Part shown: one piece after another, positions 685 to 64,000 of the stretch
How positions within the stretch are numbered: the first letter of the stretch is position 1
Layout: each line of letters begins with the position of its first letter
NCBI GenBank assembly: GCA_910587245.1
Contig: CAJULX010000010.1
Coordinates: 5,069-69,068 of the forward strand
Length of the DNA stretch: 64,000 bases
DNA from: Candidatus Gastranaerophilales bacterium
GTDB taxonomy: Bacteria; Cyanobacteriota; Vampirovibrionia; Gastranaerophilales; Gastranaerophilaceae
Direction of reading: 5' to 3'
Translations under genes and position numbers: made by a program
Notes under the pieces: generated by a model
The model's input: only the letters and a program-made list of their open reading frames with translations
The model's database searches: none
What the model was told of the DNA's origin: nothing

Positions 685-1509
685 ATGTCTGAAAAAATTC
701 CTCTTACCGTAATTACTGTTTGTTATAATGAAAAAGAAGTTGAAAGAACTTGTAAAAGTATCATAAATCAAACGTTTCAAAATTTTGAATGGATAGTGAT
801 TGACGGTGGTTCAAATAAAGAAACTCTTGAAACTTTAAATAAGTACAAAAACAGAATGAATATTTTTGTATCTGAAAAGGATGCAGGAATTTACAACGCC
901 ATGAATAAAGGCATAGCCCTATCTGAAGGCAAATGGTTGAATTTTATGAATGCTGGCGATACATTTTTTGAAGATGAAACTCTTGAAAAAATTTTTGTTA
1001 AAAATATTTTATTCTTAAAAGATACAGATGTTATCTATTGTGACAGTTTTTACCATGGTAATGACGGAAGTATCAAGGCAGGTAATTTTCCTGAGAAATT
1101 AAATTATGCATTTTGGAATATTAACTGTATAAATCATCAAGCTGCTTTTATCAAAAAAGCACTTTTTGAAAAATTTGGGACATACGATGAGCAATATAAA
1201 ATTTGTGCTGATTGTGAAAAATTTTTACAATTTCAAAAGGAGGGGTGCAAATTTAAACATTTAAAAATTACTGCTTCTAATTTTTTTCTTAACGGTTGTT
1301 CAAATGTGCATAAAAGGCTTACTAATTTTGAAAAGGGGCAAATTCTAAATAAATATTTCCCGTTTAAATATGAAACAGTTTATACGTTAGATTTTTTTGA
1401 TAAATTTCCGCTTTTGAGAATTAAAAAAAGAAGAGATAATGAAAAATTTGGTTTAATATTTTTAAAAATGCCGATTTTTACGTGGAATGTTTCAAAACAA
1501 AAGAAGTAA
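685..1509 (+). CDS. family 2 glycosyltransferase
   Basis: 274-aa ORF. VITVCYNE, IVIDGGS, DAGIYNAMNKG and NAGD motifs are typical of GT-A fold GT2 enzymes. Confidence 0.8.
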   Translation: MSEKIPLTVITVCYNEKEVERTCKSIINQTFQNFEWIVIDGGSNKETLETLNKYKNRMNIFVSEKDAGIYNAMNKGIALSEGKWLNFMNAGDTFFEDETLEKIFVKNILFLKDTDVIYCDSFYHGNDGSIKAGNFPEKLNYAFWNINCINHQAAFIKKALFEKFGTYDEQYKICADCEKFLQFQKEGCKFKHLKITASNFFLNGCSNVHKRLTNFEKGQILNKYFPFKYETVYTLDFFDKFPLLRIKKRRDNEKFGLIFLKMPIFTWNVSKQKK

Positions 1510-3148: not shown

Positions 3149-4591
3149 CTATGCGGCGTTATTAATTCCGTAAACAGCATTTGTAATGCGGTCATAATCC
3201 GCTTCTACAATTTTTGCTGGGTATCCTGCGTGGTGAATTTTCGGTATTAAATAATCTGCGGAATATTCAATTAAACCTGCATAGCCGTCATCTGTGTCAT
3301 TGCAGATAAAGTTTATTTTGCCGTTAGCGTCTTTTTTATAATCAACTATTGTTATTTCATGCCCGTTTACAATTTTATTCGGTCTATTATCGGGTGTGTT
3401 TACATAATTAGGGTTTTTAGTGTCACCGCTTGTTTCATTTGTTAAAACATATCCTACAATTACATCTTCGCCTGAATCAAGAGTTTCTGTTATATGTTTT
3501 TGAATTGTATCCAAATCACAGCCCCAGCCTGTTAAATTTTGCTGTTCATCTACTTTATGGTAGACCATTGAGAGTCTTTCATTGTTTTCTACAATGCTTT
3601 CAATGAATATTTTTTCAAATTCTCCAAGACCTTCGGGATTGGAATTGAACTTGCCTTCCCTTTTATCTATAAGTGAATTATAGCTCTGCTCGGAACCCAT
3701 CTGCATAAAAGTGGACTGCATATAAACATCAAGAATTGTGCGCTCGCCCTTATCCCAGAAATTGTTTTGGATTTGAGCTCTTATTTTTGCGTTTTTATCG
3801 GGTTTTAATTTAATTTTAAATTCCTGATTGTTAAAATCTATTTTTTCGGGTTTGATTTCAAACATATTTTGTAAAATATTATATGCTTCAAGGTAGCTTG
3901 AATTTAAAGATGAAGCTTTAATTGTCTGTTCAACAGATTCGTTTTGTGATGTTAAACCTTCAGCCCATCTTGCAAATTCCGCAGGGTGTTTTCTTGCAAG
4001 ATGATATTCAAAGCTTGCCGAAACACATGTGCCTGAAGCAGAAACATCTAAAAGCGCAGGGTTTTGTTTTATGGCATCGTCAAGATTAGGGTCTTTTAAA
4101 ATTTCAGCTTTTATCTGCGGCGGAATATCGCCGAATACCTGTGTTACAATTTCAGGAGCATAAACAGCATCAATGGTCTGCCCTAAAATCTTTGCATTAT
4201 CAAGCCTGTCCGCCCTTTTTGTCACAGCTATTTTATAAAGATTTTCAAGAGTGGTGGTAGAATTATTTGAAGAATTATTCAAAAGCGTACCGTTTTTCAA
4301 CAGGGTGTCGAGCTTTTGCAATCTTGAAATGTTATCCTGAGGGCTGTTTTTTTCTGTTTGTGATGTAGCAAGCAATTGTGATACGGCATTATACATCTCT
4401 ACATCTTTTTGAGATGTTAATTGCGTATTAACGGAAAGTTCTCCCTTTGATACGGGGGATGGAAAATTAATTATGCTTCCTCTAAAAGCAGGCATAGTAA
4501 CGCTTGAAGATTGAACAAGCTGATTATTGTCAACCTTGTTTAGCGAATTCATTCTATGAGCCGGTTGTTTTGCTTTTATATTCTCAATCAT
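3149..4591 (-). CDS. hypothetical protein, possible papain-fold Cys/His peptidase
   Basis: 480-aa ORF. SGTCVSASFEY, then NGHEITIV, then NDTDD have the spacing of a Cys-His-Asp arrangement. The function is a weak inference only. Confidence 0.45.
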   Translation of the reverse strand: MIENIKAKQPAHRMNSLNKVDNNQLVQSSSVTMPAFRGSIINFPSPVSKGELSVNTQLTSQKDVEMYNAVSQLLATSQTEKNSPQDNISRLQKLDTLLKNGTLLNNSSNNSTTTLENLYKIAVTKRADRLDNAKILGQTIDAVYAPEIVTQVFGDIPPQIKAEILKDPNLDDAIKQNPALLDVSASGTCVSASFEYHLARKHPAEFARWAEGLTSQNESVEQTIKASSLNSSYLEAYNILQNMFEIKPEKIDFNNQEFKIKLKPDKNAKIRAQIQNNFWDKGERTILDVYMQSTFMQMGSEQSYNSLIDKREGKFNSNPEGLGEFEKIFIESIVENNERLSMVYHKVDEQQNLTGWGCDLDTIQKHITETLDSGEDVIVGYVLTNETSGDTKNPNYVNTPDNRPNKIVNGHEITIVDYKKDANGKINFICNDTDDGYAGLIEYSADYLIPKIHHAGYPAKIVEADYDRITNAVYGINNAA

Positions 4592-4714
4592 GCCATTTCA
4601 AAAACTTTTGCCTGCTATAATATTAAAACCTCAAACAAAGAAAAAATTGCCTTAAAAATATTGGGGTTTCTTAATAAATTGCAATTTTTATTGATTTTTT
4701 GTAAAGTTTGGTTA

Positions 4715-5707
4715 ATGAAGTATAAAAAAATCCCTAAAAATTATATAAAAATCTGTATAGACAGACTGACAAGATTTAAACCCGTATATGAAAGATATGA
4801 GAGGGTTTTTTACGATATTTTAAATAAATTTCTGCTTTCGGATTCAAGAATAAGTATTAATAAAGAAAAACGGGATATTGAAACCATTTGTAATATGGTA
4901 TCCGAGATTTTTAACGCTTCAATTCCTTTTGAATATGATTCTTTTTTATCGGATATTTTATTTAATGAAGAAAAAAACACATTTAACCTTGATGAACATG
5001 AAATTAAATTTTTAAATACAAAATTAAATATAACAGGTGCCGTAAAATACCTTTCGGATGAGCAGAGACTGCCGTTAAATCTTGAAAGATTGAAATTTTT
5101 ACTTAAAAGGAAAAATGCGGATACGGATTCTTTGAGGAGGGAAAACTCTTTTTTGTATCCTGTGTCTAAGGTTATTTTAACGGAAGGTGCTACAGAAGAA
5201 ATTTTGCTGTCAAAATTTGCAATGAAACTCGGTTATGATTTTAATAAGGAAGGAATATTTGTCCTCGGTGCAGGCGGGAAAAATCAGGTTGCAAGAAAAT
5301 ATTATAAAATGGTAAATGAAATCAAGCTTCCCATTTTTATTTTGCTTGATTACGATGCGGATGAAACAAAGGAATTAATTTTAACAAAGTTAAGACCGCA
5401 GGATAGAATTCATCTTATTAAAGCCGGCGAATTTGAAGATATATTACCGCTTGAATTAATTGTAAATTCTATTAACAATAATTTTTCAAATAATCTTCAC
5501 TGCTCAAAAGAAGATTTTGATTTAAACTGCAAAATGACAAAAAATCTTCACAATCTTTTTAAAAACAAAGGTTTTGGCGAATATAAAAAGGCGGATTTTG
5601 CAAAGATGGTGAAATTTTATCTTGAAAAAATTGGAGGAATGCAGGATACAAATACTTTAATTTCCGATGAAATTAGAGAAATTATTGATGAAATCAAAAA
5701 AATTTAA
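4715..5707 (+). CDS. TOPRIM (OLD-nuclease-like) domain protein
   Basis: The ORF-track start at 4556 overlaps the divergent gene, so the internal ATG at 4715 (MKYKKIP) is preferred. VILTEGATEE ... ILLDYDADE resembles the TOPRIM E...DxD core. No P-loop was seen. Confidence 0.5.
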   Translation: MKYKKIPKNYIKICIDRLTRFKPVYERYERVFYDILNKFLLSDSRISINKEKRDIETICNMVSEIFNASIPFEYDSFLSDILFNEEKNTFNLDEHEIKFLNTKLNITGAVKYLSDEQRLPLNLERLKFLLKRKNADTDSLRRENSFLYPVSKVILTEGATEEILLSKFAMKLGYDFNKEGIFVLGAGGKNQVARKYYKMVNEIKLPIFILLDYDADETKELILTKLRPQDRIHLIKAGEFEDILPLELIVNSINNNFSNNLHCSKEDFDLNCKMTKNLHNLFKNKGFGEYKKADFAKMVKFYLEKIGGMQDTNTLISDEIREIIDEIKKI

Positions 5708-18575: not shown

Positions 18576-19841
18576 ATGTCAAGACCAATGACTATCACGG
18601 AAAAAATATTTGCAGCTCATGCCGGAAAAGATGAAGTAAAGGCGGGGGATTTAATAAGTGCCAAAGTTGATATTACGCTTGCGAATGATATCACGGGTCC
18701 TGTTGCAATTAACGAATTCAGAAAGATTGGTGTAGATAAAGTTTTTGACCCTGAAAGATGTGTTTTTGTTCCTGACCACTTTGTGCCCAATAAGGATATT
18801 AAATCTGCAGAGCAGGTTAATTTAATCAGAAAATTTGCACGTGAAATGAATTTGAAGTTCTTCTTTGAAGTAGGAAGAATGGGAATTGAACATGCGCTTT
18901 TGCCTGATTCAGGTATCGTTACCGCAGGAGATTTGATTATAGGAGCTGATTCGCACACCTGTACATACGGCGCTCTGGGTGCTTTTTCAACCGGTGTAGG
19001 TTCAACGGATTTGGCCTGTGCAATGGCTTCAGGAGAAACCTGGTTTAAAGTACCGAGTGCAATAAAGGTTGAATTTAACGGCAAATTAAATAAATGGGTA
19101 AGCGCCAAAGATTTGGTATTGCATTTAATAGGCGATATCGGTGTTGACGGTGCTTTATACAAAACTCTTGAAATAACGGGAAGTGCGATTTCCGAAATGC
19201 CTATGGACGGCAGATTTACCATATGCAATATGGCAATTGAAGCAGGGGCTAAAAACGGTATAATTCCGCCTGATAAAATTACGGAAGAATATTTAAAAGG
19301 CCGTTCAATAAGGCCGTATAAATTCTATACGTCTGACCCTGATGCTGAATACGAAAGAATTATTAAATATGATGTGGCTGATATTGAACCGACTGTTGCT
19401 TTTCCGCATTTGCCGGAAAATACAAAACCCATAAGTAAAGTGGGTAATGTTGAAATTAATCAGGTGGTAATCGGAAGCTGTACAAACGGAAGACTTTCCG
19501 ATTTGAAAATCGCAGCAGATATCTTAAGAGGTAAAAAGGTTCATAAAAATGTACGTTTAATTGTATTCCCCGGTACTCAGGATATTTATTTAAAAGCAAT
19601 TGAACTCGGGTATGTTCAGACGATAGTTGAAGCAGAAGGTGCTGTATCTACACCTACCTGCGGTCCGTGTCTCGGCGGTCATGCGGGTATTCTTGCCAAG
19701 GGTGAGCGTGCAGTTTCTACTACAAACAGAAACTTTGTAGGGCGTATGGGACATCCCGAATCTGAAGTATATCTTGCTTCTCCTGCCGTTGCAGCTGCAA
19801 GCGCTATTCTGGGAAGAATTGCAAGCCCTGAGGAATTATAA
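18576..19841 (+). CDS. aconitase-family dehydratase large subunit (LeuC/HacA type), copy 1
   Basis: 421 aa. GADSHTC, GSCTNGR and CGPCLG supply the Fe-S ligands. Confidence 0.85.
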
Positions 19842-59017: not shown

Positions 59018-59155
59018 AAATAAAATTTATAACTATTATATTTTACAATACTTTTTTATTTGCGCACAGTACATTTTAAGTATAAAACTTGAAATTTACA
59101 CTGCATAATTTTTTATTGAGCACTTAATATGAAGGGTATATTTTGCTTATTTTTT

Positions 59156-59422
59156 CTAAAGCCAAAACATATTGCGAACTGAACCAAAGTGCGTGTTTGT
59201 GTTGCTGCCGTCTGTCCACGTGGTAGCGCAGAACCTGCTCCAATACCATCCGCCTCCATTCAAGTAGTAAGCTGTATATGCCTTACCACCGTCTGTGCAG
59301 TTAGTGGTGTCGGTATAGGCCGTAGAAGACCATACGTGGTACGGGTTCCAAGCCTGCTTACTTGCGCTGATACCCTGGTTCGGACAGTGCGGCGTACCGC
59401 TCACGCTGGAGTTGTTACACAA
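59156..59422 (-). other. silent C-terminal cassette C1 (lectin-fold variable module)
   Basis: Encodes CNNSSVSGTPHCPNQGISASKQAWNPYHVWSST...FGSVR. There is no ATG (only a TTG), and no RBS or N-terminal pilin part. A 1-nt insertion before the 3' box changes CCFGF to NMFWL. Confidence 0.85.
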
Positions 59423-59478
59423 GTAATTGAGAGATTTCTTGTCTTTTATAATAAATTTTTCATTAAAAAGAAAACTTA

Positions 59479-59564
59479 AGCAATTTTTTGCTATCTCCCG
59501 ACGGGTTAGAAAAGTGCCTTAAATCTGTCTGTGCTCGTAAGCGCAAACACTCTTTTAAAGGCAC
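59479..59564 (-). repeat. inter-cassette structured element E1 (unclassified; candidate RNA or ssDNA fold)
   Basis: Minus-sense structure: P1 GUGCCUU/AAGGCAC, P2 GUUUGCGC-UUACGA-GCACAGAC, the 18-mer AACCCGUCGGGAGAUAGC, and P3 AGCAA/UUGCU. Confidence 0.6.
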
Positions 59565-59617
59565 TTTTAAAAAAGCAAAATATACTATAAAAATATAACA
59601 TAAAAAGAAACTTATTT

Positions 59618-59878
59618 TTATTCAAAGCCAAAACGACAACGAACTGAACCAAAGTGTGTCCAGCCATCAGTTTTCGTGGTAGCGCAGAACCAATTGACCG
59701 CCCAGGTGGTACCATCCAGATAGTGAGTCCTGTAAGCCGCCCCGCTGTCCGCGCAGTTACTGTGTGTATAGGGCGTAGAAGACCATACGTGGTACGGGTG
59801 GTGATTCTGCTTACTTGCGCTGATATACTGGTACGGACAGTGTGGTGTCGAGACATTTGTATTTTTGCCTCTAAAATT
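59618..59878 (-). other. silent C-terminal cassette C2
   Basis: The open frame has no Met: NVSTPHCPYQYISASKQNHHPYHVWSSTPYTHSNCADSG...THFGSVRCRFGFE. The ORF track only shows an out-of-frame ORF here. Confidence 0.85.
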
Positions 59879-59933
59879 TTAAGAAGAATTTTTTATTTTT
59901 CGTTAAATTTTTTAACAAAAAACCTTTATTTTA

Positions 59934-60019
59934 AGCAATCTTAATAAAAATTGCTATCTTCTGACGGGTTGAATCCCTTATCTGTCTGTATCCTTAAATA
60001 CAGACACTCTATTAGGGAT
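59934..60019 (-). repeat. inter-cassette structured element E2
   Basis: P1 AUCCCU/AGGGAU, P2 GUCUGUAU-UUAAGG-AUACAGAC, AACCCGUCAGAAGAUAGC, and P3 AGCAAU/AUUGCU. Confidence 0.6.
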
Positions 60020-60051
60020 AAAGTTTCTTTTTTTAAGATATAAACCTTTTT

Positions 60052-60285
60052 AAAGCCAAAACAACAACGAACTGACCCAAAGTGCGTGTAGCCATTGCTT
60101 GCCCACGTGGTAGCGCAGAACCCATTGATAGCCCAGCTCGTACCATCTAAGTACCAAGCGTAGTAAGCCTTACCGCTGTCCGTACAGTTACTGCTTGTAA
60201 AGGCCGTAGAAGACCATATATGGTTCGGGTGCTGATTCTGCTTACTTGCGCTGATACCCTGAGCCGGACAGTAAGATGTTGCATT
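60052..60285 (-). other. silent C-terminal cassette C3
   Basis: An in-frame TAA at 60286-60288 is followed by NATSYCPAQGISASKQNQHPNHIWSST...THFGSVRCCFGF. There is no Met. The frame stays open through the downstream element to 59941. Confidence 0.85.
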
Positions 60286-60344
60286 TTAAAAGAAGAATTC
60301 TTTTTTGGCAGGTAAAATTATTCACCTGTCAAACTATAATATTA

Positions 60345-60452
60345 AGCTGTAAAATCTCTTATAATTTTAATTTTACTGCTATCTTCCGACGGGTTAAAAA
60401 GCTCATAAATCTGCTGTTATCCTTAAATAACAGCACTCTTTTAAAATGAGCT
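60345..60452 (-). repeat. inter-cassette structured element E3
   Basis: P1 AGCUCAU/AUGAGCU, P2 GCUGUUAU-UUAAGG-AUAACAGC, AACCCGUCGGAAGAUAGC, and P3 AGCAGUAAAAU/AUUUUACAGCU. Confidence 0.6.
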
Positions 60453-60508
60453 TATAGGTTTATTTTGTATTAATTGCTTTTTACAATAAGTTATTTAGTT
60501 TTCAATTT

Positions 60509-60814
60509 TCATATTTTGTGAAACATATTTTCTTCAAAGCCAAAACTACAACGAACTGATCCAAAGTTTGTGTAGCCATTTGTATGCGTGGTAGCGCAGA
60601 ATCCGCCCAAACTCCAGCTCGTACCATTTAAGTTCCAAGCGTAGTAAGCCTTACCGCTGTCCGTACAGTTAGAAGTAGACCAACTATTTGTATAGGCCGT
60701 AGAAGTCCATATGTAGTTCGGATACTGGGCCTGCTTACTTGCGCTGATAAGCTGATGCGGACTGCTTTTACAGATTATAAAAGCTACACGGAAGAATTTT
60801 TCATTATTCTGCAA
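60509..60814 (-). other. silent C-terminal cassette C4 (homology 60536-60772)
   Basis: Encodes CKSSPHQLISASKQAQYPNYIWTST...NFGSVRCSFGF. It lacks about 8 codons (SVSGTPHC) of the 5' box. It shares 33 identical nt with the expressed gene. Confidence 0.85.
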
Positions 60815-60855
60815 ATTCTTTGCAAATTAATGTTCCTGAATTTTTAAGAATATTA

Positions 60856-60931
60856 AGCAATTTTTGCTATCCTCCGACGGGTTGAAGTTCCTTTACCTGC
60901 CTGTACCCGTAAGTACAAAACACTCAAAAGG
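60856..60931 (-). repeat. inter-cassette structured element E4
   Basis: P1 CCUUU/AAAGG, P2 UUUGUAC-UUACGG-GUACAGG (two G-U pairs in minus sense only), AACCCGUCGGAGGAUAGC, and P3 AGCAA/UUGCU. Confidence 0.6.
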
Positions 60932-60950
60932 CATGCTTCACATTTTGAAA

Positions 60951-61256
60951 TTAAGGCGACCTTATAAAGCCAAAACAACAACGAACTGACCCAAAGTGCG
61001 TGTAGCCGGGTTCCGTAGGGTGTGTGCTCACGATTGTGGTAGCGCAGAACCCGCCCAGAACCATGCTTGTACCATTCAAGCCGTAAGTGCGGTATGTTGT
61101 ACCGCCTGTGCAATTGGCAGTGTCAGTATAGGTCGTAGAAGTCCATATGTGGCTCGGCCACTGACTCTGCTTACTTGCGCTTATGTTCTGTGCCGGACAG
61201 TATGGTACACCGCTCACGATAGTGTGGCTACACCCACTTTGCGGAAGAATTTTTTT
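60951..61256 (-). other. silent C-terminal cassette C5
   Basis: Encodes GCSHTIVSGVPYCPAQNISASKQSQWPSHIWTSTTYTDTANCTGGTTYRT...HFGSVRCCFGF. It is the closest match to the variable part of the expressed gene. Confidence 0.85.
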
Positions 61257-61298
61257 TCATGACGGAAAATTTTTCCCGACCCAATTTTGCAATTATTA

Positions 61299-61385
61299 AG
61301 CAAATCTTTTTTGCTATCTTCCGACGGGTTATAAGGCGCTTGAATCTGTTTGTATCCTTAAATACAAACACTCCTTCATTTTGCC
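61299..61385 (-). repeat. inter-cassette structured element E5
   Basis: Split P1 (GGC..GAA / UUC..GCC), P2 GUUUGUAU-UUAAGG-AUACAAAC, AACCCGUCGGAAGAUAGC, and P3 AGCAAA/UUUGCU. Confidence 0.55.
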
Positions 61386-61395
61386 CTTTTATTCT

Positions 61396-61665
61396 AAAGC
61401 CAAAACGAAAACGAACTGAACCAAAGGTCGTGTAGCCTGGTGCTGTTGCGTTCGTGCTCGCATATGTGGTATCGCAGAACCAACCAAGCTTCATACTTGA
61501 GCCGTCCAGATACCAGATATGGTACGTAAGACCGCCACCACTACACTTGCTCGTGTCAATATAAGTCGTAGAAGACCATAAGTGGTTCGGGTACTGACGC
61601 TGCTTACTTGCGCTGATACCCTGTGACGGACAGTACGGTACATTGCCTGCACTAAGCTGTCGCAC
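61396..61665 (-). other. silent C-terminal cassette C6 (5'-truncated, abuts C7)
   Basis: Encodes NVPYCPSQGISASKQRQYPNHLWSST...TFGSVRFRFGF. It starts 15 nt after the C7 stop and has no leader element. The track ORF runs on through element E5. Confidence 0.8.
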
Positions 61666-61680
61666 TTTATACCGCCTTTG

Positions 61681-62028
61681 CTACTTTTTTATTCTAAAGC
61701 CAAAACAACAACGAACTGATCCAAAGTGCGTGTTGCCATTTGTGTTCGTGGTAGCGCAGAACCCATTGAGTGCCCAGCTCGTACCGTCTAAGCGCCAAGC
61801 GTAGTAAGCCTTACCGCTGTCCGTACAATTACTTGATGTATAGGCCGTAGAAGACCATATGTGGTTCGGGTACTGATTCTGCTTACTTGCGCTCGGCCAC
61901 TGTGCCGGACAGTACGGTATACCGCTCACGCTAGAGTAGCTACACCAGCTCATTTTAGAAGAATTTTCCTTCAAACCGATGAAATTTTCATCAGCTGAAG
62001 TTCCTGAATTTTCAAGAATATTAAGCAT
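61681..62028 (-). other. silent C-terminal cassette C7 (homology 61681-61947)
   Basis: Encodes WCSYSSVSGIPYCPAQWPSASKQNQYPNHIWSST...HFGSVRCCFGFRIKK. The core site is altered (GCTCGGCCAC instead of GCTGATACCC). Confidence 0.85.
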
Positions 62029-62121
62029 TTTTATGATTTACAAAAACTGCTATCTTCTGACGGGTTAGAATATACCTGAATGTCTGCCTGCGCCCTTGAG
62101 CACAGGCACTCTTTTTTCAGG
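62024..62121 (-). repeat. inter-cassette structured element E6
   Basis: P1 CCUGAA/UUCAGG, P2 GCCUGUGC-UCAAGG-GCGCAGGC (G-U in minus sense only), AACCCGUCAGAAGAUAGC, and P3 AGCAGUUUUU/AAAAAUGCU. Confidence 0.6.
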
Positions 62122-62270
62122 CTGATTTTTTTTAATTTTTTAGAAAAGTTTGGAAAAAAGTTAAGTTTTTATCGCTTTTTTATCTCCTCCTTTTTGTTAC
62201 AAAACTACATACAAGTCTGAATTTTTAGTTTTAACTCAACATGGCAAGAACTTTTTGTCTTTATAAAACT

Positions 62271-62492
62271 TTATCTTCCAAAGCCAAAACTACAACGAAC
62301 TGACCCATACTGCGTGTAGCCGGGTGCAGGTGTATACGTGCTCGCAAGCGTGGTAGCGCAGAACCCGCCTGCACCCCAGCTGGTACCATTCAAGCCGTAA
62401 GCGCGGTAAGCCGCGCTGCCTGTACAAACCTCCGTACTATAGGTCGTAGAAGTCCATACGTGGGCCAGGTGCTGTTTTTGTTTTTCCTCCAA
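62271..62492 (-). other. silent C-terminal cassette C8 (5' box degenerate)
   Basis: Encodes EEKQKQHLAHVWTSTTYSTEVCTGSAAYRAYGLNG...QYGSVRCSFGFGR. The ISASKQ core has been replaced. Confidence 0.8.
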
Positions 62493-62630
62493 AGTAAAAA
62501 TTGCTGAATTATTTTATTTTTACCATATAAAAGCCAAAGAATTAGAAACCAAATCAATAAACGTATCTTTATATCATTATTGAAAGGTTGCTCAAAATCC
62601 CATTTTTCTTTAATGAAATTTTGTGCCCTA

Positions 62631-62706
62631 AGCCCCACAGGGAGCTATCTTTGGACGGGTTGAAAAATCTTCTCTGTTAACACCCTTAAGCATTAACACT
62701 CCAAGA
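62631..62706 (-). repeat. inter-cassette structured element E7
   Basis: P1 is short (UCUU/AAGA). P2 is GUUAAUGC-UUAAGG-GUGUUAAC with two G-U pairs. The 18-mer is AACCCGUCCAAAGAUAGC. P3 is AGCUCC/GGGGCU. Confidence 0.55.
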
Positions 62707-62923
62707 AATAAAGTTTTACATTTTAGTACTTTAGCCCTTTTAACGCGTTTAGTCAATATTCTTCACAAAATGTTACATTATTGAAAATAGATTTCAATAT
62801 GGTATACTTCATAAAAGAAAAGTTGGAAAACATTTTTGATGTTTCTCGCTTATGTGCGCGGGAAATATTTAAAAAAGTTAAGTTGTTTTATCGTAAATAG
62901 TTTACACAAGGTTACATGTAAGT

Positions 62924-64000
62924 ATGAAAAAAGTTATTTTTTCGCATGCCAAAAATATTGCATGCAAAAATTGCGGCTCAAAACGTCGCAAAGCATTTTC
63001 ACTTGTTGAAATGCTGATGGCTCTTCTGGTAGCTTCGTTATTGCTTGCGGCTCTTGCCCCTGTAATGACAAGAAAAATGACAGAGGATAAAGTCAATGTT
63101 TCGGGTAGTTTAACTGACAGTATCTACCATGAGTACAAGGTTTTTACAAACCTCACAACAGGAGATGGCAATAGTGCTAATAAAGAGTACGAATTCGAAT
63201 TTCCACCAAACACCGATGAAACGGATGCTACGAGATTCGGTGCGATTATAGTTGCAGGGGGTGGCGGAGGTGCCGGCGCAGCTGCTTCTGATGTCAGAGG
63301 GCCAAAAACCCTTTCTTTTAATCAGGGCAATGCGGGAGGCTCTACCTCTTCTACAACAAGCGCTGTGTCATTGCCTTCGTATACCGATTACAGATTTAAC
63401 AGGTATACGGATTCAATAAAGCTGACTATTGTTAGCGGCGCAGGCGGCGGCGGCGGCGGAAACGGCGTGACTAAGACGGAAACACCGGAACTTAGTCAAT
63501 CCGTTTGCGCGGGCTATGGTATGGGAAAAACAGATACCACGGGGCATGTTGGTACTGTTAATTCTCCGCTTATCGTCTACGATTCAGCTAATAATATGTG
63601 CGTCTCAGCGTATAATCAGATTTCTTCAGGTACAAGGACTTCTCCAAGTCCGAGCCAGCCATATTGTACAACCTATTCATACAGTGGTTTTTCTACGCCG
63701 ATTTGTATGAAAGATGGTGCGTTTAATGCGTGCAACGCATTTAAGACGGCCATGGGCGGAAATATGAATTGGAGATTGCCTACGCAGACTGAGCAGTCAA
63801 AATGGACAGCGACGTTTGTTGGAAGAACAATTGCGGCAGGCGGTCTAGGTGGGTGTAACCACTCCAGCGTGAGCGGTACACCGCACTGTCCGCATCAGCT
63901 TATCAGCGCAAGTAAGCAGGTTCACGATCCGTACCACATATGGTCTTCTACGACCTATACTGACACTGCCTTTTGCACAGGCGGTACGACATACCGCACT
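62924..64000 (+). CDS. type IV prepilin-like surface protein with Gly-rich middle region and DUF1566/FISUMP-like lectin-fold C-terminus (3' end beyond window)
   Basis: An ATG at 62924 opens a frame with no stop for 359 codons to the window end. It is missing from the ORF track because no stop is reached. The N-terminus KAFSLVEMLMALLVASLLLAALAP is a prepilin cleavage/methylation-type segment. AGGGGGAGA and SGAGGGGGGNG are glycine tracts. NWRLPTQTEQSKW is the DUF1566/FISUMP hallmark. From 63851 onward the gene is homologous to cassettes C1-C8. Confidence 0.85.
   Translation, partial: MKKVIFSHAKNIACKNCGSKRRKAFSLVEMLMALLVASLLLAALAPVMTRKMTEDKVNVSGSLTDSIYHEYKVFTNLTTGDGNSANKEYEFEFPPNTDETDATRFGAIIVAGGGGGAGAAASDVRGPKTLSFNQGNAGGSTSSTTSAVSLPSYTDYRFNRYTDSIKLTIVSGAGGGGGGNGVTKTETPELSQSVCAGYGMGKTDTTGHVGTVNSPLIVYDSANNMCVSAYNQISSGTRTSPSPSQPYCTTYSYSGFSTPICMKDGAFNACNAFKTAMGGNMNWRLPTQTEQSKWTATFVGRTIAAGGLGGCNHSSVSGTPHCPHQLISASKQVHDPYHIWSSTTYTDTAFCTGGTTYRT
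63443..63457 (+). repeat. (GGC)5 trinucleotide repeat inside the pilin-like gene
   Basis: GGCGGCGGCGGCGGC encodes part of the SGAGGGGGGNG tract. Confidence 0.9.

Follow-up and report, generated by a model that had tools for sequence, protein, structure and literature searches.

A diversity-generating retroelement (DGR) is usually presented, and also engineered, as a single template acting on one or few targets, and structural understanding of the cis-acting RNA of DGRs comes from a single phage. In the Bordetella phage ribonucleoprotein, cryo-electron microscopy revealed a template:primer duplex between template repeat (TR) and spacer (Sp), TR117-129/Sp47-56, with priming at A56; an avd:Sp stop duplex lies two nucleotides away from it, the TR is looped out between the two, and flanking stem-loops grip Avd and the reverse transcriptase (RT) (10.1101/2023.10.23.563531). 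For DGRs that have at least two TRs, 53 cases have been noted (PMC11661182). An Avd-type stem-loop was present downstream of the TR in 207 of 278 surveyed DGRs. Here, a repeated structured element was studied in a 64-kb window (the whole stretch of DNA analysed, from contig CAJULX010000010.1 of a Candidatus Gastranaerophilales bacterium; coordinates are those of the window unless another assembly is named). The elements head seven leader/TR units, E1 to E7, read on the minus strand. Each element is very probably the 5′ leader scaffold RNA of a DGR template, within one multi-template DGR of 30 TRs and 14 leaders; all evidence for this reading is comparative. Among the roles offered by the initial annotation, an RNA that templates or guides cassette transfer was essentially correct, and neither a recombination-promoting structure nor a transcriptional insulator found support.

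The near-invariant 18-mer of the element, AACCCGTCNRARGATAGC, gave 7 matches in the window (up to 2 mismatches), all on the minus strand at 59490-62661, with a chance expectation of 0.01. A covariance model, built from a structural alignment of 19 distinct element copies from five genomes, returned exactly 7 matches (69-96 bits) when run on the whole window, all on the minus strand of 59468-62720. No copy outside these seven was detected in the 64 kb by the model or the 18-mer scan. Each copy alone folded into the same shape, P1/P2 followed by P3. The seven copies are tied to cassettes as first annotated, but the claim of one copy upstream of each cassette held only in part: eight cassettes, not seven, are present on the minus strand of 59.1-62.7 kb, and cassette C3 is without an element. 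The cassettes have a TR length of 180-265 nt, and their product of about 88 aa shows the motif …SVSG.PYCP.Q.ISASKQ…HIWSST…GFCATT…FGSVRC.FGF.

The element had not been matched to any known DGR element at that stage; the locus is nevertheless a DGR, with avd and RT just outside the window and adenine-specific substitutions in its target. No RT was found within the window (Pfam on 17 open reading frames (ORFs), and context tables). In the sister assemblies L001, L002 and L093, which are of the same species and come from other samples, avd and RT lie approximately 8.5 kb past the window end, directly after a right-hand array and on the cassette strand, as mapped in L093. The RT has the motifs IGNLTSQ (residue 251) and YVDD (residue 283), by which it was assigned as DGR-type; Avd matched PF22296 (bAvd) with 45.7 bits (cutoff 40) and NF033474 (DivGenRetAVD) with 47.1 bits, under the cutoff of 80. 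Read on the minus strand, the locus consists of avd, RT, seven units of a leader with its TR or TRs, the inverted target gene, and seven further such units. With the second array, seen in L093 beyond the window, the cassettes total 30 and the leaders 14; the window covers the final seven units and, of the target gene, the first third. The unit next to RT overlaps the RT stop codon and has no leader parts other than the 18-mer, P3 and the box described below.

The target protein has 853-854 aa in the sister assemblies, with a prepilin-type N-terminus and a Gly-rich C-terminus. The VR of a DGR is expected in a C-type-lectin-like or Ig-like ligand-binding domain of the target. Here, a weak match to PF07603 (Lcl_C/DUF1566) was obtained with 18.4 bits, below the cutoff of 34.9, and PF07603 was found in several homologues; a PDB sequence search with the domain of the variable region (VR) gave no match. 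Cassette homology, inverted, is present in the target gene from 63853 on. The VR is internal in the protein, not C-terminal. Over 10.9 kb, in which the arrays lie, L001, L002 and L093 matched the window in every base, and only the VR stretch differed; in the 10,918 nt left of the VR, containing all TRs and leaders of the window, zero differences were found when the window was compared with L001 and L093. Of the 30 members of the target-protein cluster, 14 were fetched, and these were identical outside the VR. With the cluster's representative and the translations from L001 and L002 added, they provided 17 distinct VR alleles in otherwise identical sequences. Transfer is therefore one-way, the TR arrays being invariant and the VR hypervariable. 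At the 3′ boundary, the VR has the sequence GTTCGTTGTGTTTTGGGGGCCGAACC and the TRs have GTTCGTTGTNGTTTTGGCTTTAGAA, and the tracts diverge there in the manner of an initiation of mutagenic homing (IMH) site. TR-specific variants after CGTTGT were absent from all VRs compared, and GC-rich palindromes follow the VR, as read from the sequence.

Contacts between leader and downstream cassette were looked for because the leaders of E1 and of the relatives L055 and L101 have no upstream cassette, and because the RT-proximal unit keeps the 18-mer, P3 and the box AAUUCUUC. Two long-range helices were found. P0 joins a stretch of 6-9 nt, the last two of which are the AA of AACCC, to the complementary sequence that directly follows GGCU where the next TR has its 3′ end (Table 1). 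Cognate P0 helices averaged 7.07 bp versus 4.42 ± 0.33 bp in permuted leader/flank pairs (0/5000). When P0 was placed by sequence landmarks only, two of its pairs switched (CG/UA/AU and UA/CG) with zero unpaired cells in 30 units, and the inner seven pairs had 8 G-U cells versus 1 A-C cell. In multi-cassette units, the 3′ flank of every cassette can pair with the one leader, which suggests alternative closures of one leader on several TR 3′ ends within a unit.

In P5, positions 9-14 of the 18-mer (P5a, the RGARGA part) pair with the AAUUCUUC box (P5b) just 5′ of the TR. The compensatory sets include AGAAGA/UCUUCU and GGAAGA/UCUUCC, and each deviant 18-mer has a matching deviant box: CCAAAGA/UCUUUGG, both strands of which are unique to E1, CCGAAAA/UUUUCGG, AGGAGG/CCUCCU, AGAAGG/CCUUCU, AGGAAG/CUUCCU, and GGGAGAU/AUCUCUC. 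Boxes were placed by similarity to the consensus with pairing ignored; although four or five were misplaced in this way, the covariation score of P5 was 0.286 versus 0.180 (0/500). An unconstrained partner search for the 18-mer, which suffered from U-tract noise (7.1 versus 6.76 bp), was dropped in favour of this pairing-blind placement. One minimum free energy (MFE) fold contained an extra pairing, GUCRGAA/UUUUGGC, in which both strands are invariant.

From 5′ to 3′, the order of a unit is thus P1 around P2, P0a (ending in AA), the linker CCCGUC, P5a, P3, P4, P5b, TR, GGCU, and P0b. The 18-mer region serves as an organiser strand, on which P0a, CCCGUC and P5a are adjacent. Since P5b and P0b pair with adjacent stretches of this strand, the TR forms a loop between two neighbouring duplexes. 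Formerly taken for single-stranded conserved boxes, the 18-mer and the AAUUCUUC box are instead strands of the helices P0 and P5 that bracket the cassette. Unconstrained MFE folds of three complete units (428-456 nt) gave P1, P2, P3, P4 and P0.

These helices bear directly on the possibility that the element is a spacer of the Bordetella phage type, lying 3′ of the upstream TR and serving it. Canonical DGRs have an Avd-binding stem-loop (9-11 bp with a tetraloop) just downstream of the TR; P2 is similar and sits 25-110 nt after the preceding TR, and in 12 of the 17 alleles the 3′-most VR segment came from a TR followed by an element. However, it is the downstream TR to whose flanks P0 and P5 join the 18-mer region, and pairing is poorer in non-cognate combinations. 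The leaders of E1, L055 and L101 have no TR upstream, the last TR has no element after it, and the RT-proximal TR has the 18-mer, P3 and box upstream of it. A spacer serving the upstream TR is therefore improbable; each leader belongs to the TR downstream.

That the cassettes are donors to the VR was seen in the alleles. A single-donor model left non-A mismatches with every single TR, and the alleles were modelled as cassette mosaics because no single cassette explained any of them. By Viterbi assignment against 29 TRs, the VRs were mosaics of 2-6 cassette segments. Residual DNA substitutions under this model fell on a donor A in 24 of 31 cases (expected fraction 0.254; p = 2e-9); these 24 were skewed to A>G, with 15 A>G, 8 A>T and 1 A>C. 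In the 17 alleles, 78 of 121 residual amino-acid changes were explainable by A-only substitution, versus 6, 13 and 11 for C, G and T, respectively, and the donor residue was Asn in 52. Untemplated A-biased changes also occurred where all 29 TRs carry A, for example GCGCAAG to GCGCGAG. Cassette signatures, such as NSWSTS of C5 and the YTQY end of C1, recurred beside differing 5′ parts. The A-focused residual changes and the recurring signatures together indicate that the cassettes are DGR TRs, several of which feed one VR. Of 58 donor segments, 44 came from TRs directly after a leader, and such TRs make up 14 of the 29, a preference in keeping with leaders that serve the downstream TR.

Mosaic VRs, and donors that are inverted, promoterless, partial copies, are also what would be expected if the cassettes were silent donors like those of pilE/pilS, used in RecA-dependent gene conversion that the element promotes as a DNA or RNA structure. 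Against this, it is template adenines and Asn codons on which the untemplated changes cluster, the locus encodes Avd and a DGR-type RT, the long-range helices, which covary and tolerate G-U, indicate a folded RNA enclosing the cassette, and the transfer is strictly one-way with invariant arrays. Gene conversion of this type is thus about as improbable as the upstream-serving spacer.

The local hairpins were evaluated on the 19 aligned copies. P1, P2 and P3 together were 95.3% paired versus 67.3% in shuffles, with a covariation score of 0.636 versus 0.188 (0/500 shuffles); both-sided changes were found in 22 of 27 local pairs, and just 40-50% of cells were paired in partner-slid controls. P2 is a 10-bp stem with the tetraloop UAAG, UACG or CAAG, enclosed by P1. 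It had 97.4% of its cells paired, and 8 of its 10 pairs change on both sides; this result is not circular, because P2 was positioned by fixed offsets and without folding. The paired percentage of P1 is circular, because its registers were taken from the MFE fold of each copy; in an independent test, the longest P1 stack was 8.05 bp versus 5.13 bp in shuffles. P2 had 29 G-U cells versus 3 A-C cells (12 versus 3 with the conserved closing U-G left out), from which it follows that the minus strand is the folded strand. The folded minus-sense nucleic acid with compensatory changes read from the sequence at the outset is thus borne out, as are the P4 hairpins, which appeared in the three unconstrained folds, and the AAUUCUUC box, which is present in all seven units.

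Hairpins between repeated units could also mark a signal for transcriptional insulation, termination or RNA processing whose sole effect is to keep the cassettes apart. Two terminator-like sites were found in the region versus 3.6 expected, a plus-strand one within E5 and a minus-strand one inside C7 and away from every element; the boxes are helix strands that pair across the cassette, and a near-invariant 18-mer in five genomes would be unexpected for a terminator. Such a separator role is accordingly very unlikely. Least likely of all is a neutral duplicated spacer with structure inherited from one ancestral unit, for although the units are clearly products of duplication, paralogues differ on both sides at the 22 pairs mentioned and also at pairs about 300 nt apart with complementarity kept, and pairing falls to 40-50% in the slid controls.

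By analogy with the phage ribonucleoprotein, the leader scaffold RNA could work as follows. The RT-Avd complex would dock on P2, P3 and P4, with P2 as the Avd-type stem-loop and P3 and P4 as RT contacts. P0 would be the template:primer duplex that presents the TR 3′ end, and the invariant A at its end would prime. P5 would be the stop duplex, at which cDNA synthesis would end at the TR 5′ end. The A-mutagenised cDNA would then replace all or the 3′ part of the VR, inward from the fixed 3′ boundary, so that VR variation would be the choice among approximately 30 templates multiplied by adenine mutagenesis. In its widest form, this makes the locus a natural DGR that acts as a cassette library, in which one RT-Avd serves about 30 TRs in two arrays, 14 of them with a circularly permuted scaffold RNA and possible alternative closure, and template choice is combined with partial or mosaic retrohoming and A-mutagenesis; we consider the chances for and against this wider proposal to be about even.

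Several points weigh against the leader-scaffold reading or parts of it. Priming at AA and the assignment of the hairpins to Avd and RT are suggested by analogy only. The organiser strand and all hairpins are located 5′ of the TR here, a permuted order, whereas the Avd-type stem-loop is downstream in the phage and in the 207 surveyed DGRs mentioned above. P5 is supported by a smaller number of independent changes than P0, since one sequence is common to most units. P1 did not exceed chance in E1 (62661), E3 (61330) and E4 (60883), and the original statement that P1 covaries in every copy therefore holds overall and for the four stems quoted with it, each individually significant, but not for these three copies. 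The RT-proximal unit is without P1-P2, yet its TR serves as a donor, which means that P1-P2 are not strictly required. The preference for leader-proximal donors is confounded, because only leader-proximal TRs have complete 5′ ends. Finally, the mosaic VRs could in part be chimeric consensus sequences from metagenome assemblies, and homologous recombination could contribute to segment exchange.

Table 1. Features of the leader/TR array and the associated DGR genes (P0b, strand of P0 in the 3′ flank of a TR; names beginning with T are those in L093)
Feature	Position	Strand	Basis	Remarks
Promoter-like site	62728-62756	-	consensus match only	TTGACT-17-TAAAGT, ~25 nt upstream of E1
Leader E1	62620-62720	-	covariance model, 77.7 bits	P1, P2, 18-mer variant AACCCGUCCAAAGAUAGC, P3; first unit of left array
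Leader E2	62013-62130	-	covariance model, 84 bits	
Leader E3	61288-61392	-	covariance model, 96.4 bits	
Leader E4	60845-60942	-	covariance model, 69.5 bits	
Leader E5	60334-60457	-	covariance model, 88.7 bits	
Leader E6	59923-60028	-	covariance model, 86.7 bits	
Leader E7	59468-59571	-	covariance model, 87.4 bits	18-mer variant GGGAGAU, compensated by box AUCUCUC
P5b box of unit E2 (AAUUCUUC type)	61958-61965	-	box/18-mer compensatory sets	3′ strand of P5
Other P5b boxes	62536-62543, 61244-61251, 60791-60798, 60292-60299, 59883-59890, 59429-59436	-		
TR C1	62284-62463	-	blastn and coordinates	5′-truncated; P0b 62274-62281, UUGGAAGA, pairs with UUUUUCAA of E1
TR C2 (T8796)	61700-61945	-		P0b 61690-61697, UUAGAAUA, pairs with UAUUCUAA of E2
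TR C3 (T8496)	61400-61633	-		second cassette of unit E2, directly after C2; no own leader
TR C4 (T8066)	60970-61233	-		P0b 60960-60967, UUAUAAGG, pairs with CCUUAUAA of E3
TR C5 (T7636)	60540-60789	-		unique 18-nt insertion encoding NSWSTS; P0b 60530-60537, UUGAAG, pairs with CUUCAA of E4
TR C6 (T7152)	60056-60271	-		P0b 60046-60053, UUAAAAAG, pairs with CUUUUUAA of E5
TR C7 (T6724)	59628-59840	-		P0b 59618-59625, UUGAAU, pairs with AUUCAA of E6
TR C8 (T6259)	59162-59420	-		P0b 59152-59159, UUAGAAAA, pairs with UUUUCUAA of E7; aberrant, degenerate 3′ end GTTCGCAATATG
Target gene, 5′ part	62924-64000	+		runs off window
VR start	63858-64000	+		inverted relative to TRs; only between-sample difference
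RT, 447 aa	L093 19543-20886; window-equivalent 72466-73809	-	RVT_1, 2.9e-16	

The promoter-like site upstream of E1 could, as a consensus match, drive the left array, although the total count of such sites was not clearly above chance. As for the individual TRs, C2 was a frequent donor, and C4 had contributed as a donor to the VR of the window and to those of L001 and L093. The NSWSTS insertion of C5 turned up in 5 VR alleles, and the unique YTQYGSVRC end of C1 was present in allele P0125; C3 and C8 were never donors among the 17 alleles. In-frame stops interrupt the homologous reading frame in two TRs of the right-hand array in L093, T17014 and T14882 (for example, AAY*AYGL). An open frame is therefore not a requirement for a TR, and any stop that is copied would need A-mutagenesis or selection for its removal.

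An exact scan of 185,579 genomes with the 18-mer found 87 stretches. Those that were real occurred only in the Gastranaerophilales/Vampirovibrio metagenome-assembled genomes (MAGs) L012, L041, L055 and L076; the remaining stretches scored <20 bits with the covariance model, and by our estimate some 500 chance matches were expected. Searches of JGI metagenomes gave 6 matches, all by chance, and IMG/VR gave none. Judged by sequence, mouse-gut Gastranaerophilales and Vampirovibrio MAGs are the only carriers of the element. The surroundings of RT homologues (75%, 67% and 55% identity) were searched for a simpler relative with a single TR; no leader was found after RT in L100, L102 or L103, and the one leader in L101, a divergent copy (39.5 bits), is on the opposite strand to RT.

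Some further observations were made in the relatives and beside the locus. At 9585-13200 of L100/L101, a related species (RT 75% identical), the syntenic site shows that the locus is structurally polymorphic: L100 has a target gene of 969 aa, and in L101 the target is split and same-orientation tandem cassettes run directly into it. The Vampirovibrio MAG L055 has, at 950-1255 (minus strand), a solitary leader with one short TR-like cassette ending in YSVRCVVAL; by eye, a promoter-like TTGACA-17-TAAAGT precedes this leader, and no RT-like ORF was seen in the 8 kb fetched, which were inspected without a domain search. A tRNA with a long variable arm is located at 21406-21493 of L093 (minus strand; window-equivalent ~74.3 kb), directly upstream of avd and between ompH and the DGR, and could mark an old integration site. 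In L001, an N run at ~19100-19400 is a scaffolding gap inside the repeats of the right-hand array, and assembly errors or truncation of such repeat arrays are likely in many MAGs. Elsewhere in the window, a gene for an OLD-like TOPRIM protein (PF20469) at 4556-5707 (plus strand) overlaps the 5′ end of a minus-strand ORF of 480 aa at 3149-4591, for which no Pfam match was found; 3149-5707 may be a small defence module.

If the leader-scaffold reading is right, the locus provides a second DGR RNA architecture, backed by covariation, with the same core topology in permuted order, and suggests that the essential feature is the two adjacent duplexes bracketing the template. Scaffold and template would then be multipliable as a module, which would be useful for programmable multi-template DGR mutagenesis. 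In gut Gastranaerophilales, surface variation would combine a cassette repertoire with hypermutation, and the cassette library, if true, would unite both of the classical ways to vary a surface. Survey tools that look for a single TR close to RT, or for the RNA downstream of the TR, would probably overlook such loci or score them wrongly.

Comparison with known systems started from Rfam. As the initial annotation had supposed, no family matches the element: at gathering thresholds only tRNAs were found, and at E <= 10 one weak match to RT-7 was obtained in the window and none in 50 kb of related loci. RT-7 (RF03028) is an RT-associated motif of unknown role (PMC5737381). It shares with the element the order AGAGU, a hairpin with a uCAaGg loop, AGA, AAUUC, and GuAACC opening a long-range helix. 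Only E2, 1 of >20 copies, matched it (E = 0.0035; 25.5 bits versus a gathering threshold of 116.8), and both internal RT-7 domains are missing here; the resemblance is a lead, not membership. Literature searches gave no account of arrays in which some 30 TRs supply a single VR, of leader RNAs for individual TRs, or of VRs that are mosaics. The multi-TR DGRs of surveys are alike in having more than one TR per DGR, but were only counted or excluded there. The pilE/pilS system of Neisseria, vlsE of Borrelia and tprK of Treponema resemble the locus in having one expression site, silent partial cassettes and mosaic alleles, and the target here is a pilin-like surface protein; they differ in that the changes here are adenine-specific and untemplated, RT and Avd are encoded, and the donors have RNA leaders.

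The closest likeness in architecture is to the DGR RNA of phage BPP-1 (avd 3′ end, TR and Sp; Rfam RT-10), which was compared by its published description. The element has no sequence similarity to RT-10 and gave no match to it even at E <= 10. In both cases, structured RNA flanks the TR of a DGR with Avd and RT, and two adjacent duplexes form on one organiser strand with the TR looped out. One duplex takes the template 3′ end and ends in an adenosine, and the other takes upstream sequence; the organiser has the order of primer-type strand, short linker and stop-type strand, and a stem of about 10 bp with a tetraloop, as well as further stem-loops, lies beside the core. Apart from the permuted order described above, the present locus differs from BPP-1 in that its primer site is inferred and in that the module is repeated 14 times, once per template unit.

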